This document shows, piece by piece, positions 1,224-25,404 of a DNA stretch of 43,091 nucleotides. Position numbers and translations under genes: made by a program. How positions within the stretch are numbered: position 1 is the stretch's first letter; each line of letters starts with the position of its first letter. This stretch comes from an uncultured Acidimicrobiia bacterium (GTDB taxonomy: Bacteria > Actinomycetota > Acidimicrobiia > Spongiisociales > UBA11373). The notes beneath the pieces were generated by a model that searched no databases, had not been told where the DNA came from, and saw nothing but the letters and a program-made list of their open reading frames with translations. The DNA is taken from positions 1 through 43,091 of the forward strand of contig CAZJRF010000001.1 in NCBI GenBank assembly GCA_964548475.1, in the 5' to 3' direction.

Positions 1224-1288
1224 GCCGGTGCGGGGCCAGCGCCGACGGGCCGGGCGGCATAGCATGCGGTCACCGAGCGGAGAGGTCT

Positions 1289-2344: not shown

Positions 2345-2363
2345 GGAGCCGGGAGGAACGCGT

Positions 2364-2591
2364 TCAGTCGCGGTAGCGCCAGACGATGCGCCCCCGCGAA
2401 GGGTCGTACACCGACAGGTCCAGGTCGACGCGATCGCCGGGCAGGATGCGGATATAGCGGCCCCGCCGCATCTTTCCCGAGGCGCGGGCGAGCACTTCGA
2501 GGCCGCCTTCAATCTGCACGCGGAACATGGCGTTGGGCAGTGTCTCCACCACCGTGCCCTGCACGCGTACCACGTCTTCCTGTTTCGCCAA
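2364..2591 (-). CDS. infA: translation initiation factor IF-1
   Basis: The product [29 protein letters not shown]...[34 protein letters not shown] is a typical IF-1 S1-like domain. I place the start at TTG 2591, preceded by GAGGA about 8 nt upstream, giving 75 aa. The track ATG at 2615 would add 8 atypical residues. Confidence 0.92.
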
Positions 2592-2904
2592 GTGGATCCT
2601 CGTCGATCGGGGCAAAACGCGGAAGCCACTGTCGCATGCCGTTTAGCGATTATCAAGGCAGAGGGGCAGGGGGGTGCGGTGGGTTCAAGCCTGCATAACT
2701 TGGCCCCCGTGATGTAATAGGGACATGCGGGAGGCGCCGGCACGGGTCGGTCTTCCCCCACTCCCCCACGCCGTACCGGCGCCACCGCATCCCACTCCTC
2801 TCCTTGCCGGACAGGTCCCCCCCGTTGAGTAAGGTGGAGGGCCGTGACACAATCTCCTATTCGCGTAGTGTCAATCGACCCGGAACTCTGAGGAGCGACC
2901 CCCG

Positions 2905-4311
<1,407 letters not shown>

Positions 4312-4361
4312 GTGGGCCCCCGGCAGGGCTAGCCCGTTGCACCGGCGGTACCATCGTCCCC

Positions 4362-5438: not shown

Positions 5439-5472
5439 GCTTGCTCGGGCTTGGCTGCGCCGGCCCCGGAGA

Positions 5473-6810
5473 GTGCAGGTCTCCGTGCAGCTGATCGTGG
5501 TGGGAGCCCGAGGCGTCACCCGGGAACTGGCTCGTCGTCTCGGCCCCATCTGGGATGTGACGGTCGTGGACACGGACCCTGCCTGCCTGGAGGAAGCCCG
5601 GCGGGCCGGTGCCACCGCCACCGTGCTGGGAGACGGGTCCAGCCGGGTGATCCTGGCGCGAGCCGGCCTGGCCGGAGCGGATGCGGTGGTGGCCGCCACC
5701 CCGGACGATGACGTCAACCTGGAGGTGTGCCGGCTCGCCCGGGGAGCCGGGTGCTGGCGGGTGGTCGCCCTGGCGGCGACGCCGGAGCGGCTGGCCGATC
5801 TGCGACGGATGGGGGTGGAGGCCCACGCCATGGCGCTGAGCGCCCGAGAGCTGGAGGCCCTGCTGGATCGCGATGCGGTCTCGACGACCACCCTGGCCGC
5901 GGGCCGCTCGGAGGCAGTGGAGTTGCGCATCGGCGCGGGGAGTCCGGTCAATGGGGTCCCCTTGCGCGCGCTCGCGGGTGTGCCGTGGCTGGTCGTGTCG
6001 ATTCTGCGCGGGGATGAGTTGATCGTGCCGCATGGGGACTCGGTCCTCGCCGAAGGTGACGTGGTGACGGTGGTGGGGGCCGCCTCCGACTACCCGAAGA
6101 TCGTGCGAGCCTTTCTGGCCACCGAGGCACCGTTCCCCCTGGAGTGGGGCCGGGGGGTGACGGTGGCACTGGATGGCAGGTCCGACGTGCCGGTCGTCTG
6201 CGAGGCCCTGGAGCTCGCCCGGGCTACCGGGGGGTCGGCCGCGCTGGTGGTCCATCGCAGCCTGGGGGCGGCGCGCGACGACGCTCACGCCGACGAGTTG
6301 GCGGAAGCGCTCGAGGAGGTGAAGAGGGAGGCGGGGTACATCGAAGTGGGCTGGTACGAGATAGCCGGCCGGCCGGCCCGCTCACTGGCCTCCGTGTTGC
6401 GCGATCGGAGCGTCGGGGTGGTGGTGCTGCCGGCTCCCCGCCCGAACCTGCTGGGGAGATGGCGCGCCCGACGCTCGATCCGGCGGTGTGCCCGGCTGAA
6501 CCGACCGGTGCTGTTCGCCGGGGGTGCCCATCCCTACCGGCGGATCGCGGCCCCGGCCGGGAGGGAAGACACGAGCCGGGTCGGCTCCGCCGTGGCCGAC
6601 CTCGCTGCCGCTACCCGCCTGTCGGTGGTGCCGTTGACCCGGCCGGTGGCTGTGGATACCACCCGACGGGAGGCGGGCGAGGTGCCGGATGCGGGCGACC
6701 TGGTGATCCTGCAGTGGCCGGCGGGGAGTTCGGTCCGTCCGGACGTGCGGATGACCGCTCGGCTGCTCGTCCGGCCGGGATGCTCCGTCCTGCTCATCCC
6801 AGAACTGTGA
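5473..6810 (+). CDS. RCK/TrkA-N + TrkA-C domain protein with C-terminal universal-stress-protein-like region
   Basis: TrkA-N-like LIVVGARGVTRELARRL...AVVAATPDDDVNLEV. TrkA-C-like PWLVVSILRGDELIVPHGDSVLAEGDVVTVVG. The C-terminal half resembles USP-like alpha/beta repeats. It is a paralogue of 8051-9472. GTG 5485 is an alternative start, better spaced from GGAGAG (5468-5473). Confidence 0.8.
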   Translation: MQVSVQLIVVGARGVTRELARRLGPIWDVTVVDTDPACLEEARRAGATATVLGDGSSRVILARAGLAGADAVVAATPDDDVNLEVCRLARGAGCWRVVALAATPERLADLRRMGVEAHAMALSARELEALLDRDAVSTTTLAAGRSEAVELRIGAGSPVNGVPLRALAGVPWLVVSILRGDELIVPHGDSVLAEGDVVTVVGAASDYPKIVRAFLATEAPFPLEWGRGVTVALDGRSDVPVVCEALELARATGGSAALVVHRSLGAARDDAHADELAEALEEVKREAGYIEVGWYEIAGRPARSLASVLRDRSVGVVVLPAPRPNLLGRWRARRSIRRCARLNRPVLFAGGAHPYRRIAAPAGREDTSRVGSAVADLAAATRLSVVPLTRPVAVDTTRREAGEVPDAGDLVILQWPAGSSVRPDVRMTARLLVRPGCSVLLIPEL

Positions 6811-6862
6811 GGCCGGCGGCCCTGCCCCGGCGGCCGTGGCGGGGCGCGCCGCCCTCCGTTGC

Positions 6863-8047
6863 TTACGGGAAGCCGGGACCTTGGGCCGGGTCGGGAGCGG
6901 GCAGCGGCGGGGCCAGCCAGCGGAAGACGATCGGCGCGAGGGTTGAAGTGACCACCGCCAGCGTGATGATCGACGCCTTAAGGAGCTGATCGATAAAGCC
7001 CAGGCGGGCGCCTACCTCGGCGACCGCGATGATCAGGCTGAGCCGGGCGGAGAGTAGTGCTCCCGCCGCGAGCGCCTCCCGCCACGAGTGACGCCGGAGG
7101 ACGAGGGTGAGCGCCGGGATCAGCTTCACCGCCACCGCCAGGCCCAGCAGGCCGAGCATGCTGGCCACCGCCCCCGGCTCCCGCAGGGCGTCGATGTCGA
7201 AGCCGATGCCGACGTTGATGAAGAACACCGGCACCAGGAACCCGAACGCGAACCCGCTCAGCTGCTCGCCGAGCACTCCCCGGTTCCGGAACACCACCGC
7301 GAAGCCCGTGCCGGCCAGGAAGGCCCCGAGGATCCCTTCGATCCCGAAGGCGACCGCCACTCCCACGAACACCAGCATGAGGGCGAGAGTGGCCCTCATC
7401 CCGATCTCCTCGGAGTGGCCCGGCTGGAACAGGTGCTCGAACCACTCCGGCCGCCACCAGGCCAGGCGGCGCAAGGCCAGCAGCGAGCCTCCCATCACCA
7501 CGAAAAAGGCCGGGATGGCCACTGCCGCCCGGGCCGCTCCCTGATCCACGGCCAGCGCATATCCGCTGACCCCGAGGAGGGTGAGCAGATCGGCCAGCAG
7601 GGCCGAGATCAGGATGACCTGGCCGAGGGCGGTCGAGGCGCGGCGGGTAGCCCGCAGGCTGGGCACGACCAGGCCCACCGACGTGGTGGCGAGCACGAAG
7701 GTGAGGAAGACGCCGTGGCCCAGGAGTCGGGCAGAGGCGAGGGCTCCCAGCACGGTCAGGGTGAAGAGGGCTGCACTCCAGAACACGGGCCCCGCCCGGC
7801 GGCGACTGAAAGCGCGCAGGTCCAGTTCGAAGCCCGAGAGGAACATCAGCAAGAGAAATCCCAGATCGGCCAGCACATCCAAATAATGGGCCGGGTCAAT
7901 GATGTGAGTGACCGGACCGATGAGGATGCCGAATACGATCTCGAGGACGATGGCGGGCAGGCGAATGCGGGCGGCGAGAAGCGGGAGGGCGAGCGCCGCG
8001 CCCACAATCACCAGCAGCGCGAAGGTCGCCTGATGGTCGCCGCTCAT
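6863..8047 (-). CDS. cation:proton antiporter (CPA2 / Kef-type Na_H_Exchanger family)
   Basis: A 394-aa polytopic membrane protein. The N-terminus LPAIVLEIVFGILIGP and the overall hydrophobic pattern are typical of CPA2 exchangers. There is no fused KTN/RCK domain. The start lies 3 nt after the stop of the RCK gene at 8051. Confidence 0.85.
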   Translation of the reverse strand: MSGDHQATFALLVIVGAALALPLLAARIRLPAIVLEIVFGILIGPVTHIIDPAHYLDVLADLGFLLLMFLSGFELDLRAFSRRRAGPVFWSAALFTLTVLGALASARLLGHGVFLTFVLATTSVGLVVPSLRATRRASTALGQVILISALLADLLTLLGVSGYALAVDQGAARAAVAIPAFFVVMGGSLLALRRLAWWRPEWFEHLFQPGHSEEIGMRATLALMLVFVGVAVAFGIEGILGAFLAGTGFAVVFRNRGVLGEQLSGFAFGFLVPVFFINVGIGFDIDALREPGAVASMLGLLGLAVAVKLIPALTLVLRRHSWREALAAGALLSARLSLIIAVAEVGARLGFIDQLLKASIITLAVVTSTLAPIVFRWLAPPLPAPDPAQGPGFP

Positions 8048-8050
8048 CGG

Positions 8051-9472
8051 CTAGTGCCTCACCGGAACGACCAGGACGGAGGCGGGCAGCCGCCGCACCA
8101 GGTGGGCGGCGATGCCCGGGCCGAAGAGGCGGGGCCGCCAGCGGGCTCCTAGCACCACCAGGGTCTGCTCATTGCACAAACGGACGAAGAGATGTACCTC
8201 ATTACCTTGCTCTATCTCCCGGCGCACTTCCACGCCATGGGCGGCGGCCTCTATCTGCAGGCGCCCGGCCGTCCGGATCGCACGGTCGCGAGCGTCGTCG
8301 GCGGCGATGAACGCCGGGGGGATAACGGCCAGGCCAACCAGGGGAGAACCGGAGTAGGCGGCGATGTCGATGGCGGCCTCGCCGGCCGCCCGCGCGGCCG
8401 GGGTATCTCGCGCGGGGGCCAGCACCCGACGGTAGGGCAGCGAGCAGCGGGATACGAGCACCGGTACCCGCAGGCGGGCAACCGTCCTCACCAGACGCTT
8501 CACCTGCCGCCTCTGCCGTCCGGCCGGGCCGGTGGGAGCAGGGAAGACCAGGATGCCCGCCTCGGCGGCGGGCAGGCCCTGCCGCAAGGCGTCCTGCGGA
8601 TCGCCGTCGACCGGGATGGCCTCCAGCGGCAATCCCGGCGTCATGGCGCGGGCTTTGTGGATCAACGCGGCGAGGTGCCGATCTCCCTCCGGCCAGCGGT
8701 GCACGATTGCCAGGCCCTGGGCCGCGCTGTGGATGACCAGATGGGCCGCCTCCGCGACCGGGCCTGCCAGGTCGGCCTCGGAATCGAGGGCGACGGCGAC
8801 GCGCGGGCCGTAGTCGGTAGGGAAGCGCGGAATGCCGGAGGTGAAGGCGGAGATCACCTGTTGGCGGGCCGCTTCGTCGCCGACCAGCGTGACCACGTCA
8901 CCAGACTGAAGCATGGTGTCGCCGTGCGGCACTTCCAGACGATCGTCGCGCAGCACACCCACCACCAGCCATCCTTTGAGGTCGAGGGACCGCAGCGGCC
9001 GGCCGCACATGGGGGATCGGGAGACCATCCGCATATCGATGACTTCCAGCCGTTCCCCGGCCAGGCCGGCGGAGAGGAGGCGCTGAGGTTCCAGGGTGCT
9101 GACCAGGCGACGGGCGATGAGACGATCCACCGAGATGGCCGGCGACCCGATGTGCCGGTAGTCCTCCAGGTTCTCCGGGGCGGCGGCCAAGGCCACGCTG
9201 GGCACACCCAACTCCCGGGCGATGCGGCAAGCCTCGAGGTTCAGGTCGTCGTCGCCGGAGGCGGCGAGCAGCACCGACGCCTCCAGCAGCCCTGCTCGTT
9301 CGAGGCTCTCCCGCAGGTTGCCGGTCGCGAGCAAAGTCTGCACCGGGCCGGCCCCGGCGGCTCGCGCCAGCCGCTCCGGGTCGCGATCGACCACGGCGAC
9401 CTCCCACCGTCCGGCGAGTTGGCCCAGCAGCTCGACGATCAGGTCGCCGGCCCCCATCACGACCGTCTTCAT
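8051..9472 (-). CDS. RCK/TrkA-N + TrkA-C domain protein with C-terminal USP-like region
   Basis: MKTVVMGAGDLIVELLG...VLLAASGDDDLNLEACRIA (TrkA-N). WLVVGVLRDDRLEVPHGDTMLQSGDVVTLVG (TrkA-C). USP-like C-terminal half ending VLVVPV. It sits immediately upstream of, and is co-oriented with, the antiporter. Confidence 0.8.
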   Translation of the reverse strand: MKTVVMGAGDLIVELLGQLAGRWEVAVVDRDPERLARAAGAGPVQTLLATGNLRESLERAGLLEASVLLAASGDDDLNLEACRIARELGVPSVALAAAPENLEDYRHIGSPAISVDRLIARRLVSTLEPQRLLSAGLAGERLEVIDMRMVSRSPMCGRPLRSLDLKGWLVVGVLRDDRLEVPHGDTMLQSGDVVTLVGDEAARQQVISAFTSGIPRFPTDYGPRVAVALDSEADLAGPVAEAAHLVIHSAAQGLAIVHRWPEGDRHLAALIHKARAMTPGLPLEAIPVDGDPQDALRQGLPAAEAGILVFPAPTGPAGRQRRQVKRLVRTVARLRVPVLVSRCSLPYRRVLAPARDTPAARAAGEAAIDIAAYSGSPLVGLAVIPPAFIAADDARDRAIRTAGRLQIEAAAHGVEVRREIEQGNEVHLFVRLCNEQTLVVLGARWRPRLFGPGIAAHLVRRLPASVLVVPVRH

Positions 9473-9627
9473 CGTCGATCTCCTGGGGAGGCGGGGGGCA
9501 GGGTGGTCATTGGCGGCCCGTCAGCATGCCCGAGTGTTATAGCAGAGCCACCGGCAGCCCCCGGGAAGGCCGCGCACCGGCTCGGGCCGGCCCGGGTCGA
9601 TAGGCTGGCGACGCGTAAGGAGGCGTC

Positions 9628-10083
9628 GTGCGGGCAGTGGTGCAGCGGGTCTCGTGGGCCCGGGTGCGGGTAGGGGGGGAGACGGTGGGTGAGATCGGCC
9701 CCGGCCTGCTGGTGCTGGTGGGAGCGGCCGCCGGCGACACCTCCGCCGATGCCGCGGCCCTGGCCGAGAAGCTCTCCGGCCTGCGTATTTTCCCTGACGG
9801 CGAGGGGCGGATGAACCGCTCGGTGGCCGAGGCGAGGGGAGCGGTGCTGGTGGTGAGCCAGTTCACCCTCCTGGGCGACCTGCGCCGGGGGCGGCGCCCT
9901 TCTTTCACAGAGGCTGCTCCCCCCGAGGTTGCCGAGCCGCTGGTGGACCGGGTGGTCGAGCACCTGCGCCGCTCCGGGTTACGGTGCGCCACCGGCCGCT
10001 TCCGGGCGCACATGGAAGTGGAGTTGCTCAACGACGGGCCGGTGACCCTGGTGCTCGAGGTGAGCGAGGGCCGGGTGCGTTGA
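9628..10083 (+). CDS. dtd: D-aminoacyl-tRNA deacylase
   Basis: [13 protein letters not shown]...GPGLLVLVG...KLSGLRIF...[12 protein letters not shown]...GRRPSF...[10 protein letters not shown] matches Dtd along its length. AAGGAGG lies upstream of the GTG start. Confidence 0.93.
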
Positions 10084-10092
10084 TCGGGCGGC

Positions 10093-13000
10093 TCACCGGG
10101 GGTGGGCGGCCAGCCAGGCGTGGCCTTCGGGACAGAAGCGGGCGAAGTCGCAATCGCGGCACGCCGGCGACGGGGTGGGGTCGCGTTCGCCCGCCGCCGC
10201 CCGGGCGGTCAGGTCGGCCAGGCGACGGCGGGCCCTTTCCAGCCAGGCGTCGTCCACCGCTTCGCTCACCTCCCGGAGCTCCCGGCCCCCCAGGTAGGCG
10301 AAGGTGACCCGGGTGTGGGGCGGCGCGGCATCGGCCAGGCCGGCGTCTGCCACCGCCACCGCGTAGGCCTCCAACTGCACCTGCCGGGCCGGATCGCGCC
10401 GCAAGGTGCCGCTCTTGAAGTCGACCACCTCCCAGCCGCCGTCGGCGTCTGCGTAGATCGCGTCGATGCGCCCGGCCACCCGGGCGTCCCCCACCGCCAG
10501 TTCGAAGGGGGCCTCCACCAGGATGGGTGAACGGGCGGCGAAGCGCGACGCGAGGAAGACGGCGAACGGATCGCCCCGCGTGTGCCGGCTCTCACCGGCC
10601 GGGAGGTCGTAGAAGGCCTCGCCGGCTTCCTCGACGGGGAGGTCTTCACGGTGGTGCAGTTCGATGCGCCGGTGTACCTCGATGCCGCGCTGCAGCCGAG
10701 GGGCGGGACGACGGGGCAGGCGGTCCACGGCGCTCCAGTGGAACCGAAGGGGGCAGGAGGCGAAGGTGACCAGGGCGGTGACGCTGGTACGGAAGAGGCG
10801 TGCTTCGTCGGTGTCCGCCAGGGGCGCGGGCAACTCCTCGAGCAGGCCGGCCAGCTCGGCGGCAGCCCGTCCGAAGGCGCCCACGATTCTCGCCCGGCGG
10901 GCGAGCCGGCGCGGGTAGGCAGGGTCGGCCACGGCTCGGCGCAGCGCGTCGAGCCAGCCCTCCCGGAAGAAGGGGTCGGGTGTGCCGGCTCTGGGATCCA
11001 GCCGCAGGGTTGGCGGCGGCTCCCCCGGTGCGTCGGTCAGGATGTGGTGCGCGACTCCTTCGACCTTCTGCGCCAGGTCGAACAGGGGGCTTTGCGTCCT
11101 GGGCAGCTTGCCACCGTACCAGTAGGCACCGGTGAGCATCAGATGGTGCTTGGCCCGCGTGACGGCCACATAGGCGGCGCGCCACTCCTGGTCGCCATGG
11201 CGGTGCTGGAGTTCCTCCTTGCGGTCGTCCGCATTTTCGGGCAGGCCGGGGAGCCAATCCCGGTCGAGGCGCAGGTGAGCGGGGAGGAACCAGGCATGGG
11301 CCGTCGGGTCCTCCAGGACGTGGGCTTGGCCGGGGAAGACCCCCTCCAACAAGGCGGGGAGCACCACCACCGGCCATTCCAGACCCTTGGCGCGGTGCAC
11401 GGTGAGCAGTACCACCGCGTCCTCACCGCTCAGCCTGGCGGTGTCGAGCTCGTCGTCGGCGCCCTCATCGAGCAGCAGGTCGAGGTAGTCGAGGAAGGCG
11501 TCGAGCGAGGGGGCGCCCTCCAGAGGGCTCCATGCCTCGGCCAGGTCGAGGAAGCGGTAGAGGTTGAGACGGGCGGAGAGGCGGGCGGCGTCGTCGAGAG
11601 CCTCGACCTCCGTCCAGGCCCCGGTCTCGTCGAGCACGCGGCGGCAGAGGGAGGCCAGGCTGAGGCCCTGGGCGGCCTCGAGCAGGCGGCGGTAGGTGTC
11701 CCGGAAGCCCTGCAGGCGGCGCTGTGCTTCGGGGGAGAACCCGGGGATCTCGTCGAGGTGGTCGAAGACCTCGAGAAGAGCCCGGCGGGGGCCTGCCTCA
11801 TCATTACGAAACGGCGAGCGTGGCTCCGCTCGCCGGGCGGCGGCCGGGGCCAGGTCGCCCAGGCCCAGGCGGTAGCGGCTGCCCAAGAGGACGCGCATCA
11901 AGGAGGCGTCGTCGTCGGGGCGGCCGAGGATGCACAGCCAGGCGTGCAGGTCGGCCACCTCGGGCACGTCGAGCAGCCCTCCCAGGGCGGCCACCTCGAC
12001 CGGGATCCCGTGTTGCTCCAAAGCCCCGCGCACCAATCCGATGTCGCGGTGGCGCCGGAAGAGGATGCCGGCGTCGCGCCACTCGATCTGCCCCGCCTCG
12101 TGCAGCTCGGCGAGCCTGCGGGCGATCCAGGAAGCTTCATCGACGGCGTTGTGGAACCAGGCCGTCTCCAGTTCCCCGGGCGGGGCCTCGTCGAGCGCCT
12201 GCAGGCGGTCGAGGCCGCTGGGCCGCGTGATCTTGCCTCTGACCCGGTTGGCCAGGTCGATGATGCGATGCGCCGACCGGCGGTTGTGGGAGAGGGTGAG
12301 GGTGGCCGCCGGGGTGCCGTCCAGCTCGGGGAAATGGACGGGGAAGGCGGCGAAGTTCTCCAGCGAGGCTCCCCGCCACTCGTAGATGGTCTGGTCGGGG
12401 TCGCCCACCGCCGTCACCGGGAAGCCGGACCCGAACAGCCGGCGCAGCACCTCCCGCTGGGCCGGGTTGGTGTCCTGGTACTCGTCGAGGAGGACCACCC
12501 GGTAGCGACTGCGCAGCCGGTCGGCTACCTCCGGGTGCTCGGCGAGCAGGCGGTGGCCGAGGGCGATCATGTCGGCGTAGTCGACCAGGCCCAGCTGCCG
12601 TTTTCGCTCGGTGTAGGCGCTGAGGACCTCGGCCATCTCGGCGCGCTTGAGTGTCACTTCGCCGTCCGGGTCGTCGGTGATCAGGTCGGCCGGCCGGCAG
12701 AGGTGGTCGCCCAGACGCCCGGCCAGAGCGCCCAGCTCACTCACCCGGGCGCCGGGGGAGGTGAGGTCGAGGGCCCGGCGAGGGGCAGCTCCCAGCGCGT
12801 CCCGCAGCAGCTGGCGGACGTAGCCGGGGGTGATTACCCCTGCCCCGCGCTCCACTCCCACCAGGGAGCCGAACTCGGCCAGCAGCCCGTGGGCGAAGCC
12901 GTGGTAGGTGTTCACCTCGACCTGGCGCCCGGCGGCGGACAGCTCGGGCAGGTGCAGCCGAAGACGGTCGGCCAGCTCCTCGGCCGCCTTGTTGGTGAAG

Positions 13001-13167
13001 GTGATGCCCAACGCCTCCTCGGGAGCGATCCCTTCGCGCCGGATGAGGGAGGCCAGGCGCAGCGCCATGGTGGTGGTCTTGCCGGTGCCGGCCCCGGCGG
13101 TGACCCGCAGCGGCCGGAGGGGGTAGTCGGCGACCGCCTGTTGTTCGGGAGTTGGGACCAGGCTCAC
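10093..13167 (-). CDS. adnB: ATP-dependent helicase-nuclease subunit, AdnB-like (UvrD-type SF1 motor + RecB-type nuclease with Cys cluster)
   Basis: TAGAGTGKTTT (Walker A), VLLDEYQDTNP (motif II), VHRAKGLEWPVV, nuclease GRIDAIY...VVDFKSG, terminal CRDCDFARFC. I place the start at GTG 13167, which overlaps the upstream gene's TGA (13164-13166). The track start is 13197. Confidence 0.85.
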   Translation of the reverse strand: MSLVPTPEQQAVADYPLRPLRVTAGAGTGKTTTMALRLASLIRREGIAPEEALGITFTNKAAEELADRLRLHLPELSAAGRQVEVNTYHGFAHGLLAEFGSLVGVERGAGVITPGYVRQLLRDALGAAPRRALDLTSPGARVSELGALAGRLGDHLCRPADLITDDPDGEVTLKRAEMAEVLSAYTERKRQLGLVDYADMIALGHRLLAEHPEVADRLRSRYRVVLLDEYQDTNPAQREVLRRLFGSGFPVTAVGDPDQTIYEWRGASLENFAAFPVHFPELDGTPAATLTLSHNRRSAHRIIDLANRVRGKITRPSGLDRLQALDEAPPGELETAWFHNAVDEASWIARRLAELHEAGQIEWRDAGILFRRHRDIGLVRGALEQHGIPVEVAALGGLLDVPEVADLHAWLCILGRPDDDASLMRVLLGSRYRLGLGDLAPAAARRAEPRSPFRNDEAGPRRALLEVFDHLDEIPGFSPEAQRRLQGFRDTYRRLLEAAQGLSLASLCRRVLDETGAWTEVEALDDAARLSARLNLYRFLDLAEAWSPLEGAPSLDAFLDYLDLLLDEGADDELDTARLSGEDAVVLLTVHRAKGLEWPVVVLPALLEGVFPGQAHVLEDPTAHAWFLPAHLRLDRDWLPGLPENADDRKEELQHRHGDQEWRAAYVAVTRAKHHLMLTGAYWYGGKLPRTQSPLFDLAQKVEGVAHHILTDAPGEPPPTLRLDPRAGTPDPFFREGWLDALRRAVADPAYPRRLARRARIVGAFGRAAAELAGLLEELPAPLADTDEARLFRTSVTALVTFASCPLRFHWSAVDRLPRRPAPRLQRGIEVHRRIELHHREDLPVEEAGEAFYDLPAGESRHTRGDPFAVFLASRFAARSPILVEAPFELAVGDARVAGRIDAIYADADGGWEVVDFKSGTLRRDPARQVQLEAYAVAVADAGLADAAPPHTRVTFAYLGGRELREVSEAVDDAWLERARRRLADLTARAAAGERDPTPSPACRDCDFARFCPEGHAWLAAHPR

Positions 13168-16163
13168 GGCAGGTAAGCCTCCCGGCCTTCGGGCCACTCG
13201 GGGCAGACCCGGCGCACCGCGCAGTTGCGGCAGTGGTCGCCGGGGGTGGGATCCCAGCGCTCGGCGCGTATGCCGGCGGCGGCCTGTGCCATTTGATCCC
13301 GGACCTCGTCACGCCGTTCCGGATCGAACGGACGGATGCTGACGCTCTTGGTGTGAGCGGCGGGGAACCACATCTCGGCCCCCGCCACCCGGCCCAATGG
13401 GCTCACCGCCGGGTCCGTCTCGGCGGCCAGCAGGTAGAAGCCGAGTTGCAGCGAGCAAGCGGCCTCGTCCGGCTTCACGGCGGTGCGGGCCGTCTTGTAA
13501 TCGACGATGTGCACCGCCGGCGGGTCGCCGCGCACCTCGATGCGGTCGGCCCGGCCCCGCCAACGGATCCCGTCGACCTCGAGGGCCAGGTTGTGCTCCA
13601 CCGCTCTCACCGATCCGGCGCTGGGCCACCGCTCGTACAGGTGGCGCAGCACTTCCTCGCCCCGTCGCCGCCAGGCATCGGCCCAGCCGCCCCCTCCGAA
13701 GGGGATGGGGTCCCAGATCTCGGCAAGGACGGCAAGGGCCCGGTCCAGGGTGCCGTGCGCCTCCCCGGCGGCCAGGGCCTCGCCTTCGACGGTCTCGAGC
13801 ACCTGGTGGACGAGCGATCCGATCGAGGCGTACACCGAGCCCTCGTCGGCCACGTGTAGCCAGCGCTCGAAGGCGTAGCGGCGGGGGCACTGCCGGTAGG
13901 AGTCGGCCTGGCTGGGGGAGAGGGCGAGGCCGGTGGGGATCAGGCCGTGATCGGGGCCCCGCTCGCGCACTCCGGCGCACTCCTCCGCGGGGCGTGCTCG
14001 CCAATCGCCCGGGCCGACCAGGGCCTGCAGGACGGCGAGGCGCCGGGGGGGAGGCTGCTCCGGGTCGGCGAGGCGGCGGCGCAGCCAGGCCTCGGCCTCG
14101 AGCGGGGTGGAGGGCTCGGCCGTCTCGGCGGGGGGGCGGGCGGCCTCGGCCACGGTGGGGACGCCGGCCACCGGGGCGAGGAAACGGCTGGGCATGCCCC
14201 GGCCTTCCTCGAAGCCGGCGGCAGTGCAGGTCCACACCACCCGCCGCCGGGCCCGGCACATGGCGGTGTAGGCCAGGCGGGTCTCTTCTTGAAGGCGGAA
14301 GCGGGAGTAGGCGCCGGTCGCCCCGGGCAGGTAGGGCGACAGGTGGCGCACTCCCAGCAGGGACTCGCGCAGGCGCAGGTCGGGGAACACCCCTTCGACC
14401 GCGTCGGCGATGAACACGAGGTCGAACTCCACCCCCTTGGCCTGATGCAGGGTGGCGAGGGTGAGGCGGTCCTCCTCGGGCGGGGCGTACTCGAGCAGGG
14501 GGGTGGCTTCGAAGTCCTCCGCCTCGCTCCAACGCAGGTAGTCGGCCAGGGTGGCGCGGGGGTCGCGCTCGTGGAGGCGTCCCACCACCTGGGCCAGGGA
14601 GGACCAGGCGGCGCGCTCTTCCTGCCGATGGGGGGAGCCGACCAGTTCGGGCACGTGGGGCAGGGTGGACCACAGGTGCCACAGGCCCTCGGCGGCGGGC
14701 CGGCGCACCGCCCAGGCCGGGTCGGAGATCAGGCCGGCGAGGGCCTCGCCTCCGGGAAGGCGGCGGCGGATTACCTCGTTCCACGGGTCGCCGGTGCGGG
14801 CCTGTTCCCGTTCGAGCTCCCGTACGGCCGACAGGGTCAGGCCGGCCGGGGCGCCGAGGAGCAAGCGGCGCAGGGCGGTCGCTCGCTCGGAGGGGGGGCC
14901 GGCGGCAGCGCGCACGCAATCGAGCACCACCCGTACCGCGGGGTGGTCCACCAGGCGTTGGTCGGGCTCCTGGTGGGGGATGCCGCGCCGTTCCAGGGCA
15001 CGGGAGAGCTCGGGGAGGAAGCGACGCTTGCTGCGCACCAGCACGGCCATGTGGCGGTAGGGGACGCGATCGCGCAGGTGCGCCCGCTGGACCTCGGCCG
15101 CGATCCACTCGGCTTCGTGCGTCTGCTGGTCGAAGGCGTAGGTCTCCACCACTCCCCGACCGGGGGCCGGCTTGACCGGCCCGGCCTCGCCGGGCAGCTC
15201 GCCTCCGGCGGTGATCCGCACCGCTGCCGCCAGGATCTCGGCGGGCACCCGGAAGGAGGTGGTGAGCACGATGCGTCGCGCCGGACGGCCCTCGGCGTCC
15301 GGGAAGGACTCGGGGAACTCGGCCACGTTGGTGAGGGCCGTCCCCCGGAAGGAGTAGATCGACTGGTAAGGGTCGCCGGCCACCGTCAGGTTGCGGTGGG
15401 GCAGGTAGAGCCGCTGCAACAGCCGGGCCTGGGCCAGGGTGGTGTCCTGGTACTCGTCCACCAGGACGCAGCGGAACCGGCCGGCCACCCGGGCCCGCAT
15501 CTCGTGGTCGTCGAGCAGTTCGACGGCGACCGTCTGCAGGGTGCCGTAGTCGATTCGTCCTTCGGCAGCCAAGGCCGCGCGGTAGCGCTCCAGGAAGCCG
15601 GGCAGGGCACGCCAGTCGTCGCGCTGCCGGGCTCGAGCGGCCAGCCCGTCGGGGCCGACAAGGTTCTCCTGGCAGCGCAGAACAAAGTCGGCCACCTCGC
15701 GAGCCAGGGTGCTGGTGGCCAGGAGGCCGCGGAAGGGTAGGGGCCAGGCCGCCGGGTCTTCGGCGGCGAGCAATTGCCTGACGATCTCGACCTGTTCGGG
15801 GCCGGTGAGCAGCGCGGGCAACCCGCCCCATCCGGCGAGCCGGTCGGCGTGAGCCTCGATGAGGCGGAAGGCGAACGAGTGGAAGGTGGAGACCGGGATC
15901 ACCGTGAAGGAGCGGTTCAGGCCGGCGGCGACCCGGGAACGGAGATCGGCCACCCCCCGGCGGGAGAAGGAGAGCAGGAGCAGTTGCTCCGGGCTGATCC
16001 CCCGGTCTCGGATGAGGTGGAGGGCCCGCCGGGCCAGGAACTCGGTCTTGCCGGCCCCGGGTCCCGCCACCACCAGCTGGGGGCCCTCGGCCGCGGCGAC
16101 GGCAGCGTCCCAACCGTCGGGATCGACCCGGGTCTCGGGGATAGCCGCTGCCATGGACCCCAC
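13164..16163 (-). CDS. adnA: ATP-dependent helicase-nuclease subunit, AdnA-like
   Basis: VAGPGAGKTEF (Walker A), VLVDEYQDTTLAQ, LHQAKGVEFDLVFI, nuclease GRADRIE...IVDYKTAR, terminal CRNCAVRRVCPEW. ATG 16154, preceded by GGTGGGG, is a likelier start than GTG 16163. Confidence 0.85.
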   Translation of the reverse strand: MGSMAAAIPETRVDPDGWDAAVAAAEGPQLVVAGPGAGKTEFLARRALHLIRDRGISPEQLLLLSFSRRGVADLRSRVAAGLNRSFTVIPVSTFHSFAFRLIEAHADRLAGWGGLPALLTGPEQVEIVRQLLAAEDPAAWPLPFRGLLATSTLAREVADFVLRCQENLVGPDGLAARARQRDDWRALPGFLERYRAALAAEGRIDYGTLQTVAVELLDDHEMRARVAGRFRCVLVDEYQDTTLAQARLLQRLYLPHRNLTVAGDPYQSIYSFRGTALTNVAEFPESFPDAEGRPARRIVLTTSFRVPAEILAAAVRITAGGELPGEAGPVKPAPGRGVVETYAFDQQTHEAEWIAAEVQRAHLRDRVPYRHMAVLVRSKRRFLPELSRALERRGIPHQEPDQRLVDHPAVRVVLDCVRAAAGPPSERATALRRLLLGAPAGLTLSAVRELEREQARTGDPWNEVIRRRLPGGEALAGLISDPAWAVRRPAAEGLWHLWSTLPHVPELVGSPHRQEERAAWSSLAQVVGRLHERDPRATLADYLRWSEAEDFEATPLLEYAPPEEDRLTLATLHQAKGVEFDLVFIADAVEGVFPDLRLRESLLGVRHLSPYLPGATGAYSRFRLQEETRLAYTAMCRARRRVVWTCTAAGFEEGRGMPSRFLAPVAGVPTVAEAARPPAETAEPSTPLEAEAWLRRRLADPEQPPPRRLAVLQALVGPGDWRARPAEECAGVRERGPDHGLIPTGLALSPSQADSYRQCPRRYAFERWLHVADEGSVYASIGSLVHQVLETVEGEALAAGEAHGTLDRALAVLAEIWDPIPFGGGGWADAWRRRGEEVLRHLYERWPSAGSVRAVEHNLALEVDGIRWRGRADRIEVRGDPPAVHIVDYKTARTAVKPDEAACSLQLGFYLLAAETDPAVSPLGRVAGAEMWFPAAHTKSVSIRPFDPERRDEVRDQMAQAAAGIRAERWDPTPGDHCRNCAVRRVCPEWPEGREAYLP

Positions 16164-20992: not shown

Positions 20993-21122
20993 CTCCCGTC
21001 TGCTTCGGCCCGCCCGGGCCGCGCTTGAGCCGAGATGGAAGCACACCGAAGCAAGCCGGGACGGGCTCAGCTCGAAGGGCCGCGGCGACGAAGCCCGCCC
21101 CGCGGCCGGCGAGAGTCTGTGC

Positions 21123-21356
21123 TTACAGGCGGACCACCGGGCAGGTCAGGGTGCGGGTGATCCCCTCGACCGCCTGGATGCGGGCCACCACGAGCTTGCC
21201 CAGCGAGTCGACATCGTCGGCGGCGGCGTGGACGATGGCGTCGTACGGTCCGGTGACCGCCTCGGCCGCCTTGACGCCGGGGATGCCCTTGACCTCGAGG
21301 GCCACCTGGGCCGCCTTGCCGACCTCGGTCTGGATGAGCACGTAGGCCTCGACCAT
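21123..21356 (-). CDS. stand-alone Lrp/AsnC ligand-binding (RAM) domain protein, 77 aa
   Basis: MVEAYVLIQTEVGKAAQVALEVKGIPGVKAAEAVTGPYDAIVHAAADDVDSLGKLVVARIQAVEGITRTLTCPVV is a typical AsnC_trans_reg domain without an HTH. ATG 21356 follows GGGGAGAG. Confidence 0.85.
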   Translation of the reverse strand: MVEAYVLIQTEVGKAAQVALEVKGIPGVKAAEAVTGPYDAIVHAAADDVDSLGKLVVARIQAVEGITRTLTCPVVRL

Positions 21357-21370
21357 TTCTCTCCCCGTGG

Positions 21371-22318
21371 TTGGTGGTGCGCGACTATACCGCCGGGGGC
21401 CGGGGCAGGTCGATTCGGATACGCTCCCCAATCATCGGCAAATCACAGACCGCCGTCAATCCGGCCAACGCGGTCCTCAACTACCTGTACGCACTGCTGG
21501 AAGCCGAAGCCCGCATCGCCTGCCTGACCGTCGGCTTGGACCCCGGCGTCGGCATCCTCCACACCGACCATCGCAGCCGCGACTCCCTCGCTCTGGACCT
21601 GATCGAAGCCGTCCGCCCCGACGTTGACGCCTACCTGCTCGGGCTGCTCCGCGCCCACGTGTTCGGTGCCACCGACTTCGCCGAGACCCGCCAAGGCGCA
21701 TGCCGGGTCCTCGCCCCACTCACCCACGAGCTGGCCGCCACCACGCCCACCTGGGCGGAACGGCTCGCCCCCATCACCGAACAGGTCGCCCGGCAGCTTG
21801 CCGACACATCCCCAGCCACAATTCGCACCCCCACCCCACTCACCCAGACCAACCGCAAGGCCGCAGTGCGCCAGCAACGCCGCGGTCCCACCTCCCGCAC
21901 CCGGAGGCCGCCCACACCAGCCGGCCACTGCCAGGAGTGCGGCATACAAGTGGAGTTGCCCCAGAGGCGGTGCAGCGACTGCGACCGCGCCTACCGCACC
22001 AGCCCAGGCCATCCAAGGCTCACCCGACTCGCCGTCCTCCGCGCTGAAGGCCAAGACCCCGCCCACGGCGGTGACGCCGGACTCAGGCGCGGCCAGACCA
22101 ACGCCCATCACGTGCGAAAGGCCGCCGCCTGGGAGCAAGCCAACCCACGGCCCGACCCGGACGTGTTCCGCCGGGACATCCTCCCCGGACTCCAACACTG
22201 CAGCCCGCAGAAGATGGCCGACGCCACCGGGCTCTCCCGCCCCTACTGCGCCCTCATCCGCCAAGGCACCTACATCCCACACCCCAGACACTGGGAGGCA
22301 CTCCGCCAGATGACATGA
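21371..22318 (+). CDS. Cas1-family protein lacking the N-terminal domain, with C-terminal Zn-ribbon/HTH-like extension (possible pseudogene or Cas1-solo relic)
   Basis: AVNPANAVLNYLYALLEAEARIACLTVGLDPGVGILHTDHRSRDSLALDLIEAVRPDVD reproduces the Cas1 catalytic-domain signature (N-x-x-L-N-Y-x-Y, E, GxxH, D-L-x-E). Homology starts about 25 codons into the ORF. Roughly 150 N-terminal residues of a normal Cas1 are absent. There is no good start or SD. The tail has CQECG...CSDCD and GLSRPYCALIRQGTYIPHPRHW. Confidence 0.6.
   Translation: MVVRDYTAGGRGRSIRIRSPIIGKSQTAVNPANAVLNYLYALLEAEARIACLTVGLDPGVGILHTDHRSRDSLALDLIEAVRPDVDAYLLGLLRAHVFGATDFAETRQGACRVLAPLTHELAATTPTWAERLAPITEQVARQLADTSPATIRTPTPLTQTNRKAAVRQQRRGPTSRTRRPPTPAGHCQECGIQVELPQRRCSDCDRAYRTSPGHPRLTRLAVLRAEGQDPAHGGDAGLRRGQTNAHHVRKAAAWEQANPRPDPDVFRRDILPGLQHCSPQKMADATGLSRPYCALIRQGTYIPHPRHWEALRQMT
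21406..21420 (+). repeat. left copy of exact 15-nt direct repeat CAGGTCGATTCGGAT
   Basis: Identical 15-mer at 25390-25404. The flanking bases differ on both sides. It lies just upstream of where Cas1 homology begins. Confidence 0.5.
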
Positions 22319-22583
22319 CGTCACCCCAGGCTCTAGCGACGTCACCAGTCCCCCTCAGCATCCCGGCGCCAGGGGTCGCATCGTGCGGCGGAACCGCTCC
22401 GTCGTCTGGCGCAGGCGACGGTTCTCTCGGTAGTAGACCTCGATGAAGTTGCCAAGGTGCTGCTAGGCGAGCGGGTTCTGTCTGAGGGCGAAGTGCTGGT
22501 GACGGCCACAGCCGTCCGGAATCCGGCTCTGGCCGGGCCTTGCCATGACCTCCAGCACGCCCGAAGGGATGCCGTGGGCTTCC

Positions 22584-22610
22584 CTCGTACGAGCCTCGTG
22601 CCGCACGAGG
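22584..22610. promoter_or_regulatory. adjacent palindromes CTCGTACGAG and CCTCGTGC-C-GCACGAGG (candidate operator)
   Basis: A perfect 10-nt palindrome (22584-22593) directly abuts a perfect 17-nt palindrome (22594-22610). Both share the half-site CTCGTRC. They lie 67-93 nt upstream of the response-regulator start. Confidence 0.35.
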
Positions 22611-22676
22611 ATCCCAGGTAACTCTCAAGTTGCCTCGACTCACTGCCGACGCGAACGGCGCGACCGTGGAGATGCC

Positions 22677-23351
22677 GTGACCCGCGTGCTGCTCATCGAG
22701 GACCATCGCCTGGTGGCTCAGGTCCTGGAACGGGGCCTGAGTGCTGAGGGCTTCCAGGTACGCTCCAGCGACGGCACGCCGGGCACTCTCCCAACCCTAC
22801 TTGCCGAGTTCCCGCCCGACGTGGTGCTGCTCGACCTCTACCTGGCGGAGGGGCGCTCGGGTATCGACCTCCTGCCGGTCCTCAGGGCGCCGGAGCGGAG
22901 GGTGGTCATACTCACCGGGGAGTCCGACCCCTCAGTGCTCGCCAGGGCCTTTGAGGCCGGGGCTGACGCGGTCCTCAACAAGGCCATGCCCTTCCTGGGG
23001 TTGGTGAGGCAGATCATCGCCATCCTGCAGGGCCACTCAGTGGAGGCAGAAGATCAGCGCTGCCGGGTACTCAGCCAGGCGCGGGCAGCCCGTGCTGAGC
23101 GCAGAAGGCGTCTCGCCCCGTTCGCTTCCCTGACCCCCCGCGAGGAGGCAGTGCTGGCCATGCTGATCGAAGGAATCCACGCCGCCGACATCGCCGGGTA
23201 TTCGTACGTGTCGCTCTCTACGGTGCGCTCCCAGATCCGTTCGGTTCTCGCCAAACTGGGAGTGGGATCGCAGTTGGGCGCGGTGTCCATGGCAGGCGAG
23301 GTGGGGTGGGCTCCTGGGGCGCCAGCCTTCGAACGCAGCGACCACAGGTAG
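22677..23351 (+). CDS. two-component response regulator, NarL/FixJ (LuxR-type HTH) family
   Basis: Receiver domain RVLLIEDHRLVAQVL...VVLLDLYL...VVILTGE...GADAVLNK. C-terminal LuxR HTH LTPREEAVLAMLIEGIHAADIAGYSYVSLSTVRSQIRSVLAKLGV. GTG 22677 follows GGAG (22666-22669). The track ORF from 22545 adds a non-homologous extension. Confidence 0.9.
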   Translation: MTRVLLIEDHRLVAQVLERGLSAEGFQVRSSDGTPGTLPTLLAEFPPDVVLLDLYLAEGRSGIDLLPVLRAPERRVVILTGESDPSVLARAFEAGADAVLNKAMPFLGLVRQIIAILQGHSVEAEDQRCRVLSQARAARAERRRRLAPFASLTPREEAVLAMLIEGIHAADIAGYSYVSLSTVRSQIRSVLAKLGVGSQLGAVSMAGEVGWAPGAPAFERSDHR

Positions 23352-23464: not shown

Positions 23465-23656
23465 ATGTTGTACGTATGGTCATGGATGCAGACTCTGGGC
23501 GCCAGCCTGCGTCACCGGGACGAGGGCGCCACGATGGTCGAGTACGGCATGCTGGTTGCCGCCATCGCTCTCGTCGTGGTGGTGGGCGCGATCGCCCTGG
23601 GGAACACCGTGTTCGACTGGTTCGATCAGGGGTCGCAGGCCGTCGTTCCCGGCTAG
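23465..23656 (+). CDS. flp: Flp family type IVb pilin
   Basis: A 63-aa product with the Flp motif EG/ATMVEYGMLVAAIALVVVVGAI. ATG 23465 follows CAGGAGG (23453-23459). Confidence 0.9.
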   Translation: MLYVWSWMQTLGASLRHRDEGATMVEYGMLVAAIALVVVVGAIALGNTVFDWFDQGSQAVVPG

Positions 23657-23697
23657 CCCGGAATCGACCCCACAGCTTGAACAGAAAAGGCGTCAGC

Positions 23698-23737
23698 AGC
23701 GGCCCGGGATCGCGGCAAGTGCTGCGCCCGGGCCGCT
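23698..23737 (+). terminator. 11-bp GC-rich hairpin downstream of flp (possible attenuator/terminator, no U-tract)
   Basis: AGCGGCCCGGG (23698-23708) pairs perfectly with CCCGGGCCGCT (23727-23737). The loop is 18 nt. It lies 42 nt after the flp stop and before tadE. Confidence 0.35.
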
Positions 23738-23855
23738 CTGCTGCCCACCCCGCACCGGTGATCTGAGAGCGCCGCCCCCTGGCGGGAGAGCCGACGGCAG
23801 CCGGCTCCCGGCGAGGGTGCCGAGGGGCACGGTGCGGGCCCAGTTGAGGGAGGGT

Positions 23856-24260
23856 GTGTTGCTCTTCAGGATCTTCAGTCGACCAGCCGCCGCCCGGGGT
23901 GACCGTGGGGTCGCGGCGGTGGAGGCGGCGCTGGTGTTGCCGGTGCTGCTGCTGCTGGTGATGGGGATCATCGACCTGGGCCGGGCTTTCGCTACCAAGC
24001 AGGAGGTCACCCACGCCACCCGGGAAGCGGTGCGGGTCTACGCGGTGACCCAGGATCCGGGCCAGGCGGTGCAGGCTTTCGAGGCGGGCACGGCCGGCCT
24101 GGCCTGCAACGCTCCGGTCATCACCCCCCAACCCTGTGTGGAGGGTGAGGAGGTCGCGGTGACCGGCGCCTGCGACTTCGACTTTGTCACCCCGCTGGGT
24201 GACCGGCTGCCGGTGCTCAACCAGATCGGATCGAGGGCGGTGATGCGATGCGGCGGCTGA
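23856..24260 (+). CDS. TadE/TadG-family pseudopilin-like protein
   Basis: The N-terminus RGDRGVAAVEAALVLPVLLLLVMGIIDLGRAF matches the TadE-like signature. GTG 23856 (or TTG 23859) follows GAGGGAGGG. The track ORF from 23556 overlaps flp. Confidence 0.78.
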   Translation: MLLFRIFSRPAAARGDRGVAAVEAALVLPVLLLLVMGIIDLGRAFATKQEVTHATREAVRVYAVTQDPGQAVQAFEAGTAGLACNAPVITPQPCVEGEEVAVTGACDFDFVTPLGDRLPVLNQIGSRAVMRCGG

Positions 24261-25258
24261 GGCGACAGGTAGTGCAGTGGCTGAGACGCGATGAGGGTGT
24301 CTCCATGGTGCTGGTCGGGGTGATGCTGGCGGTGCTCTTGGGCCTGGCCGGCATGGCGGTGGACCTGGGGGTGGTCTACGCCGAGCGGCGGGAACTACGC
24401 AACGGCGCCGACGCCGCCGCCCTGGCCATCGCCGAGGACTGCGGGAGGGGGACCAGGCTCTGCGACAACCCCACCGCCCTGTCCACCGCCGGGCAGTACG
24501 CCGACGCCAACGCCTGGGACGACGCCTCGGCAGTGGATTCCGTCGACCTCACCCTCACCGGCCCCACCACCGGTTCGGTGCGGGTGGTCACCTCCGCCTG
24601 GGACGCCGCCGCCGGCAAGGCCGGGGTGCGGGTTCCTCTGCTGAGCATGCTCGGCTTCGACCGGGTCCAAGTCGGCGCCGCCGCCACCGCCATCTTCGAC
24701 CACCCGGTGTCGTCGGAGGGAGGATTGGCGCTGATCATCGACACCTGCGAGTTCTACACCGCCGTCGGGAGCGGGTACGGGCCGCAGTCGTTGACGACGC
24801 TCATCTTCAAAGACCCCAACAAGGACCCCGAGGGGCCGTGCCTGGCCGACCCGGCCGGCAAGGACGCCCCCGGCGCCTTCGGCTGGCTCGACACGCCGAA
24901 CACCAGCCTCTGCCAGTACGACGATCTGACGGTGGGTGAGGAGGCGGAGGCCGATCCGGGCTACGCCCCCTCCAAGGGATGCAAGCAGGACATCCCTCCC
25001 CTCGACGCCGACTACATGCTCCCGGTCTACTCCGAAGTAGGCGGGTACGGGAACAACACCTGGTACACGGTGGCCGGCTTCGCCTACTTCCATTTCCTCG
25101 GCTACAACTTCCCGATCTGGGGGGAGGCCGGGGTCGGCTGCGGCGGTACAGGCCATTCGGTCGGCTGCATCACCGGCTACTTCACCAGAAACACCCTCTG
25201 GACCGGCGACCCCGGCGGCCCCGACTTCGGAGCAGTCCTGGTCAAGCTGACCGAGTAG
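24248..25258 (+). CDS. TadG-like Flp pilus-assembly protein
   Basis: RRDEGVSMVLVGVMLAVLLGLAGMAVDLGVVYAERRELRNGADAAALA is the pilus-assembly TadE/G-like N-terminal signature. It overlaps the previous gene by 13 nt. Confidence 0.8.
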   Translation: MRRLRRQVVQWLRRDEGVSMVLVGVMLAVLLGLAGMAVDLGVVYAERRELRNGADAAALAIAEDCGRGTRLCDNPTALSTAGQYADANAWDDASAVDSVDLTLTGPTTGSVRVVTSAWDAAAGKAGVRVPLLSMLGFDRVQVGAAATAIFDHPVSSEGGLALIIDTCEFYTAVGSGYGPQSLTTLIFKDPNKDPEGPCLADPAGKDAPGAFGWLDTPNTSLCQYDDLTVGEEAEADPGYAPSKGCKQDIPPLDADYMLPVYSEVGGYGNNTWYTVAGFAYFHFLGYNFPIWGEAGVGCGGTGHSVGCITGYFTRNTLWTGDPGGPDFGAVLVKLTE

Positions 25259-25389
25259 CAGCCGAAGGACGGCCTAGAGCCGGCCGCCCGGGCTGGAGGG
25301 GACGGCGGCCACCCCCTGAACCAGGAGCAGGCGCACAATCACCTGCGCGACGGATAAGGGACGTTCAGGGGTACCCCTACCTCTAGACC

Positions 25390-25404
25390 CAGGTCGATTC
25401 GGAT
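25390..25404 (+). repeat. right copy of exact 15-nt direct repeat CAGGTCGATTCGGAT
   Basis: Identical to 21406-21420. It lies in the spacer between the tadG-like gene and the hydrolase gene. Confidence 0.5.

Follow-up and report, generated by a model that had tools for sequence, protein, structure and literature searches.

A Cas1-family gene fragment between two copies of a 15-bp direct repeat

The window analyzed here is a 43,091-nt stretch of DNA (contig CAZJRF010000001.1) from an uncultured Acidimicrobiia bacterium, whose genome is represented by a metagenome-derived assembly of 2.0 Mb in 185 contigs, estimated to be 86% complete. Between a divergent AsnC/Lrp-type gene and an esterase gene, the window contains a Cas1-family open reading frame (ORF) at 21371-22318 on the plus strand, which encodes 315 amino acids (aa) and is free of frameshifts and stop codons. 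This ORF had been described as such in an earlier reading of the DNA (the sequence-only reading), which interpreted it either as the relic of a Cas1-solo or casposon-like element or as an undescribed short Cas1 derivative. Casposons are transposons in which a Cas1-type integrase, the casposase, joins the inverted-repeat ends to a staggered target cut, producing a duplication of about 15 bp, and which encode their own family-B polymerase.

The homology to Cas1 that had been claimed was borne out by profile searches. Pfam Cas_Cas1 matched residues 28-112 of the ORF, corresponding to model positions 184-268 of 283 (E = 1.2e-21), and the NCBIfam cas1 models matched the same part (1.2e-18). By sequence, the solved structures nearest to the ORF were those of Cas1 from A. 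fulgidus (4n06) and of the casposase from M. mazei (6opm). AlphaFold modeled the ORF with a mean predicted local distance difference test score (pLDDT) of 85.6 and with residues 1-24 disordered (pLDDT <50); the top Foldseek match of the model was casposase 6opm (E = 3.7e-4).

Two copies of a 15-bp direct repeat, which we read as a target-site duplication (TSD), bracket the segment 21421-25389, and the left copy ends exactly at the start of casposase homology (Table 1). At the right end, the segment closes with a terminus of the terminal inverted repeat (TIR) type. The left TIR is absent from the window, and only the right terminus is present.

Table 1. Positions of the features at the casposase locus, in window coordinates
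Feature	Position	Strand	Basis and remarks
AsnC/Lrp ligand-binding-domain gene	21123..21356	-	start most likely 21356, with GGAG-like bases ahead
Promoter-like site of the AsnC/Lrp-type gene (predicted)	21384..21413	-	consensus scan; -35-like TCGACC 21413-21408, -10 TATAGT 21389-21384
Left TSD copy, 15 bp, CAGGTCGATTCGGAT	21406..21420		exact; two copies in the window, 0.01 expected by chance
5'-truncated casposase gene	21421..22318	+	about codons 208-520 of full-length relatives; formal ORF start TTG 21371 in host promoter DNA
Surviving Cas1 catalytic helical domain	21452..21706	+	H64 21560-21562, D76 21596-21598, E79 21605-21607; catalytic Glu absent
Zn-binding motif CQECG-x10-CSDC (C187, C190, C201, C204)	21929..21982	+	weak Pfam DZR hint; AceAut-C1 parallel
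C-terminal helix-turn-helix (residues ~263-314, ATGLSRPYCALIRQG..PHPRHW)	22157..22312	+	AlphaFold pLDDT 93-98
Cargo: orphan LuxR/NarL-type response regulator	22677..23351	+	Pfam Response_reg 3.9e-14, GerE 1.6e-9; start 22545 or 22677
Cargo: flp pilin 23468-23656, tadE-like 23853-24260, tadG-like 24248-25258	23468..25258	+	Pfam Flp_Fap, TadE, Tad
Right TIR terminus, inward GGTCTAGAGGTAGGGG	25374..25389	-	same 16-17 nt forms both inverted ends of the insert in assembly L086
Right TSD copy, 15 bp, CAGGTCGATTCGGAT	25390..25404		15/15 identical to the left copy

The ORF lacks the N-terminal part of a casposase of about 510 aa

A search of the protein collection with the ORF returned more than 1,200 homologs of about 500-540 aa. 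Among the top 120, almost every protein has a length of about 500-545 aa and aligns with 93-98% of the ORF, the entire C-terminal tail included; full-length homologs of the tail, a search for which had been proposed, thus exist in number, and the long relatives carry a complete Cas1 N-terminus. The nearest relatives of the ORF are encoded at three loci, L002 (protein P0001, 81% aa identity), L003, and L006, and both DNA and protein homology to them begins at window position 21422, which corresponds to residue ~208 of the relatives. The N-terminal ~207 residues of the relatives, made up of the beta domain of Cas1 together with the catalytic domain's first helices, are absent from the window copy. 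At its start, the ORF reads through host promoter DNA for ~17 codons, which are not Cas1. The sequence-only reading was therefore right that the N-terminus is lost, and alignment to the full-length relatives corrects the size of the loss from the ~150 residues it had given to ~207. Its second alternative, an undescribed short Cas1 derivative, is not sustained, since the shortness reflects truncation of a protein of about 510 aa. A tblastn search of the assembly with five full-length relatives did not find the N-terminal piece: the sole match was the window locus. Nor was a second Cas1 found in the assembly.

The truncation also affects the active site. The catalytic Glu sits in the motif RLAEAxAAxAYW (E171 of P0001), which aligns with the Glu-bearing motif of 6opm and 7cr6; it lies upstream of the break and is therefore lost. 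E171, H254, D266, and E269 (P0001 numbering) are invariant in the full-length relatives, and the window ORF keeps three of these four, as H64, D76, and E79. The earlier statement that the catalytic residues are in place thus holds for these three but not for the Glu, the 'LEAE' cited for it being a conserved motif other than the catalytic one. In E. coli Cas1, whose catalytic residues are E141, H208, D218, and D221, alanine at any of the four abolishes nuclease activity (cited in PMC4046053).

The C-terminal tail, in which Cys pairs and a helix-turn-helix (HTH) had been recognized, is complete. C187, C190, C201, and C204 are invariant across 71 homologs, and the end motif ATGLS..YC..IRRG..PHPRHW is kept throughout the family. 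For the last ~50 residues, the model shows with confidence a bundle of helices that resembles XRE-type HTH domains (SinR-N, Aca proteins); these structure matches are weak by E-value (near 1) but have target-normalized template-modelling scores of 0.47-0.61. The remark that the tail recalls casposases agrees with AceAut-C1, whose Cas1 is described as a fusion with C-terminal Zn-binding and HTH domains (Krupovic et al., 2014; PMC4046053).

Full-length relatives belong to polymerase-encoding casposons

We fetched 79 genome loci with full-length relatives, all of them from metagenome-assembled genomes (MAGs), whose hosts include Acidobacteriota, Actinomycetota, Chloroflexota, Gemmatimonadota, Eremiobacterota, and others. 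When all ORFs of these loci were clustered, 66-68 of the 79 loci proved to share a conserved operon that is divergent from the Cas1 gene, lies upstream of it, and encodes a small protein, a protein of ~150 aa with HNH-like His/Cys motifs, and a family-B polymerase of ~1,000-1,150 aa. The assignment of the polymerase to family B is made because of its motifs, namely Exo I-III, A (DFxSMYPT), B (KxxANAxSYG), and C (CDTDS), and because 17 of 25 members have a match to Pfam DNA_pol_B_2 (best 1.3e-9). Structure searches were weak: a search of the PDB with a single polymerase sequence gave no match, and a profile search gave weak matches on archaeal PolB structures, at motifs A and B only (E = 0.02). 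The 'PolB_CDTDS' group of Kazlauskas et al. (2020; PMC7544198) includes the A. boonei casposon polymerase. The polymerases of the fetched loci end in a treble-clef-like CxxC..C..C with a faint resemblance to DUF2116 (e.g., L010:4367-4460), and at L006:187-480 a DUF2116-like protein of 97 aa is encoded by a gene of its own, after the polymerase.

In an automated pass, 30 loci yielded an inverted-repeat pair, and in 23 of these the pair delimited an element of 10-20 kb with direct repeats of 10-18 bp on its flanks, in most cases of 14-17 bp. The TIRs of the relatives are 33-490 bp long. The element at locus L010 spans 184-14641 (14,458 bp), with perfect 382-bp TIRs and a TSD of 12-14 bp. Judged by their gene content and ends, these modules are casposons. 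The TSDs start with GTCAA or end with TTGAC in 15 of the 23 (L010, L019, L023, L037, L039, L041, L046, L052, L058, L059, L070, L071, L074, L075, and L082), so that a -35-hexamer-like word lies at the edge of the duplication. This recurrence points to what is probably a strong target preference in this casposon clade.

Two further observations were made among the relatives. A second 5'-truncated casposase, P0002 (378 aa), is encoded at L003:458-1594 (JGI 3300063012 contig) and is independent of the window copy; its homology to full-length genes starts at 504, the 6.4-kb contig carries no polymerase module, and the only flanking direct repeat found around the truncated copy was an 11-mer that is probably due to chance. 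At L043:10001-12308 and L045:5907-8214, two copies on two contigs of one Eremiobacterota MAG, the casposase match extends over 2,308 nt rather than ~1,500, which suggests an insertion of ~800 nt, or a split, within the casposase gene.

The window family groups with family-3 casposases and not with CRISPR Cas1

A maximum-likelihood tree was built with IQ-TREE from 20 reference Cas1 rows (Krupovic et al., 2014, Additional file 2), 11 members of the window family, and the window fragment. The family fell inside the casposase clade (support 95/88), where it grouped with StrAlb-C1, the S. spinosa element, and AceAut-C1 (99/97), and with all five family-3 references (85/89). Its sister was AceAut-C1 (91/78), and the window ORF nested with P0001, P0003, and P0004 (100/99). 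The phylogenetic check suggested by the sequence-only reading thus places the Cas1 domain with family-3 casposases and away from the CRISPR Cas1 references. With the latter branches the Methanoculleus Cas1-solo reference, far from the window ORF.

Annotation pipelines call the homologs 'CRISPR-associated endonuclease Cas1', and the ORF might on that ground be a fragment of a CRISPR-adaptation Cas1 (CRISPR, short palindromic repeats that are clustered and regularly interspaced) from a decayed CRISPR-cas locus. We give this origin practically no weight. Apart from the tree, the homologs adjoin a polymerase and an HNH-like gene rather than cas genes, and the relatives' loci, like the window, show no association with cas genes; the window element moreover has a TSD and a TIR terminus. 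In the 86%-complete assembly, cas2 had no match at E<=1, a k-mer scan for CRISPR arrays found no spaced-repeat array, and a tblastn search with 32 proteins of the module gave no sign of a polymerase, HNH, or small-protein remnant. The absence of cas2, CRISPR arrays, and a family-B polymerase, which had been noted for the window, therefore extends to the whole assembly. Within the limits of the reference set, gene neighborhoods and tree together refute the CRISPR-adaptation origin.

The sole hit of the k-mer scan lay on another contig (C69:2529-2798), where three perfect 90-nt tandem repeats run in a coding frame (30-aa unit PAETIEAIPITVPMPPPPDAGQVVETASPT), with degenerate copies near 4270. As a perfect tandem repeat inside a coding frame, it was rejected as a CRISPR array.

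An empty site and a second insertion at the same target

Orthologs of the downstream esterase led to two further Acidimicrobiia assemblies, L085 and L086, whose syntenic flanks are ~79% identical to those of the window. L085 represents the empty site: the region upstream of its AsnC gene runs into the esterase gene with a single copy of the target, and the joined window flanks are colinear with this uninterrupted sequence. L086 (MAG CAWCKE010000005.1) carries a different insert of 3.4 kb at the same position (6507-9969), with its own perfect 15-bp TSD GCGGCGATTCCGGCG and the inverted ends GGTCTAGAGGAAGGGGG and GGTCTGGAGGAAGGGGG. Across 1.87 Mb of fetched loci, the terminal motif occurred at the window end and at the two L086 ends, plus one chance-like match. 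It was absent from the nearest casposase relatives L002, L003, and L006, so that the termini are lineage-specific. Each TSD is perfect within its own genome, but that of the window and that of L086 differ at 5 of 15 positions, which makes the two insertions independent of each other as well as recent.

The L086 insert encodes an isocitrate/isopropylmalate dehydrogenase, a PRK/uridine-kinase-like P-loop protein, and a PurU-like formyltransferase. This insert could be a casposon derivative that is not autonomous and is mobilized in trans.

On the strength of the casposase homology and tree, the 15-bp TSD, the empty site in L085, and the terminus common to L086, we conclude, with a probability of roughly 0.88, that the segment 21421-25389 represents ~4 kb from the right-hand side of a family-3 (AceAut-C1-like) casposon and that the ORF is the 3' remnant of its casposase. 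This bears out the first alternative of the sequence-only reading, a relic of a casposon-like element, with the 3' part of a family-3 casposase inside a TSD-bracketed remnant. Since neither the window nor the assembly holds a polymerase, the window copy would be a remnant and not an autonomous casposon.

The proposed history is as follows. A casposon would have inserted between the AsnC-type gene and the esterase gene, duplicating 15 bp that take in the -35-like hexamer of the former. The left TIR, the operon for the polymerase, HNH, and small proteins, and casposase codons 1-207 would then be what was lost, flush at the left TSD. Retained would be the 3' part of the casposase gene, ~3 kb of cargo (the LuxR-type regulator and flp/tadE/tadG), the right terminus, and both TSD copies.

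Several points weigh against the casposon remnant. Only one element end is present in the window; the terminus shared with L086 is short (16-17 nt), and the window and L086 ends share nothing beyond 17 nt. The L086 insert, which has the same ends, carries neither Cas1 nor a polymerase, so that the link between these ends and a casposase rests on the arrangement in the window itself. In addition, the frame of the ORF has stayed open for 315 codons, and the ratio of nonsynonymous to synonymous changes (pN/pS) on its own branch is ~0.38, compared with 0.29 and 0.23 in relatives. Continuing constraint could account for such a ratio, but a young truncation would be expected to do so just as well.

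Fate and origin of the truncated gene

Without the dimerizing beta domain and the catalytic Glu, the 315-aa product cannot be an active integrase. A consensus scan found no promoter-like site on the plus strand ahead of the ORF, no Shine-Dalgarno sequence precedes it, and the ORF is most likely a young pseudogene that is probably not expressed. The insertion appears young because the TSD copies are identical at 15 of 15 positions; by an estimate based on these copies, neutral divergence since insertion is roughly <0.1 per site, so that most of the divergence of the ORF would predate the insertion.

Truncated transposases act as inhibitors or regulators in other systems, and the truncated gene could similarly have been retained and be expressed as a non-catalytic DNA-binding protein, serving as a transposition inhibitor or a domesticated regulator. 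In that case the ends of casposons, or else the target, would be what its Zn-binding and HTH domains recognize. The frame intact over 315 codons and the branch pN/pS of ~0.38 would fit such a role, as would the complete, confidently modeled Zn-binding/HTH tail and the position of the gene directly upstream of an orphan LuxR-type regulator in the same orientation. An intact frame is, however, expected of a young insertion with identical TSD copies. Besides the lack of a promoter-like site or Shine-Dalgarno sequence, translation could start only at TTG or GTG codons that lie in the promoter of the neighboring gene, and the N-terminal dimerization domain is gone. There is also no conserved family of this length, the few short homologs being truncated differently (P0002) or lying on short contigs. 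We therefore consider a retained DNA-binding protein improbable.

The break of the truncated gene falls exactly at the boundary between element and target, which makes a random deletion unlikely. Microhomology at the junction is limited to GGTCG (5 nt), which lies 8 nt away and explains nothing. A flush break of this kind could also arise in assembly, if the genome held a complete casposon and the assembler had skipped from the left TSD into the middle of the gene; the assembly is a fragmented metagenomic one of 185 contigs, and the assembly of casposons is reportedly difficult (PMC4779613). Such an artefact is nevertheless highly improbable, as no misleading repeat connects the left flank with the middle of the gene apart from the nearby 5-nt GGTCG, no other contig holds a polymerase, an HNH gene, or the N-terminal part of a casposase, and the junction is flush with a perfect TSD.

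Taking the truncated casposon as real, two routes to it may be envisaged. In the first, the integrated DNA would have been a linear copy that was already truncated, one of its ends being genuine and the other broken or not fully replicated. In the second, the casposase would have cut at the left junction, the element side would have been resected, and the ends would have been rejoined. The first route, in which a casposase acting in trans would have integrated into the promoter target a copy with a genuine right end and a non-repeat left end inside the casposase gene, creating the 15-bp TSD, is possible but on balance doubtful. The L086 insert fits trans-mobilization of unrelated DNA, with the same ends and site and metabolic genes only. 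If integration of the truncated copy did take place, it would be natural evidence that a casposase integrates DNA whose end carries no transposon sequence. That is the property dividing Cas1-Cas2 spacer acquisition from transposition, and the event would be a DNA-transposon analog of 5'-truncated insertions of long interspersed nuclear elements.

Host flank and cargo

The divergent gene that abuts the ORF encodes an AsnC/Lrp ligand-binding domain on the other strand, as had been reported. The -35-like TCGACC of its predicted promoter lies inside the left TSD copy, and the block GACTATACC is conserved in the orthologous regions of L085 and L086.

Within the TSD-bracketed segment, the distance from the casposase stop codon to the right end is 3.07 kb, against 3.08 kb in L010. 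The LuxR-type regulator lies inside this segment and is absent from the empty site of L085. The region 23466-25269, which includes the flp, tadE-like, and tadG-like genes, is paralogous to C39:11621-13500 of the same assembly, with 82% nucleotide identity (Flp identical, TadE 80%, TadG 55%). This paralogy may explain the minimal tad module, noted earlier as lacking its machinery: it would be transposon cargo duplicated from, or related to, a native locus. The two 1-kb bins at 21001-23000 have GC skews of -0.14 and -0.10 in a window where the skew is otherwise positive in almost every bin; the negative values are consistent with foreign DNA.

Implications

The window gene and hundreds of its full-length relatives are labeled 'CRISPR-associated endonuclease Cas1' and are instead casposases, of which the window copy is defunct. 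Surveys of adaptive immunity in soil bacteria are led astray when such genes are taken for CRISPR markers. The locus extends the AceAut-like lineage of family-3 casposons to Acidimicrobiia, and it documents two independent insertions into a single intergenic target that overlaps a predicted promoter, with an empty site as control. A half element that ends exactly at its TSD may bear on how strictly casposases need transposon ends.

Comparison with known systems

The window element is a decayed new example of the known casposon family 3 rather than a new kind of Cas1. Its closest counterpart is AceAut-C1, with which the window family shares near-identical casposase motifs (NPANALLNYLYALLEAE, GLxPGLGILHADQ, and FDLMEAxRP), the order Cas1, Zn-binding domain, HTH, and a 15-bp TSD at an intergenic target (PMC4046053). 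Family-3 casposons encode a family-B polymerase and usually an HNH gene (PMC4046053). AceAut-C1 is complete, spanning 20 kb with TIRs of 602 bp, whereas the window holds a 4-kb remnant with one 16-nt terminus and no polymerase; the hosts also differ, that of the window being an Acidimicrobiia-like high-GC bacterium. StrAlb-C1, the Saccharopolyspora spinosa element, NitAL212-C1, and HenMar-C1 belong to the same casposase clade and are likewise inserted in intergenic regions, with a TSD of 14 bp for NitAL212-C1. The casposases of StrAlb-C1 and HenMar-C1 have no extra domains, however, and in NitAL212-C1 the Zn-binding domain is N-terminal.

The M. mazei family-2 casposase (6OPM) is the best structural match of the fragment and likewise has a C-terminal HTH, but its family is archaeal and forms a separate clade in the tree. 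Strains of M. mazei are known to carry decayed remnants at target sites used more than once (PMC4779613); there they are solo TIRs rather than half an element flush at its TSD. Cas1-solo group 1 of the Methanomicrobiales resembles the window ORF in being a Cas1 homolog outside CRISPR-cas with an incomplete catalytic set. Its members are full-length, vertically inherited archaeal proteins, in contrast to the window ORF, in which the loss of the catalytic residue is due to truncation.

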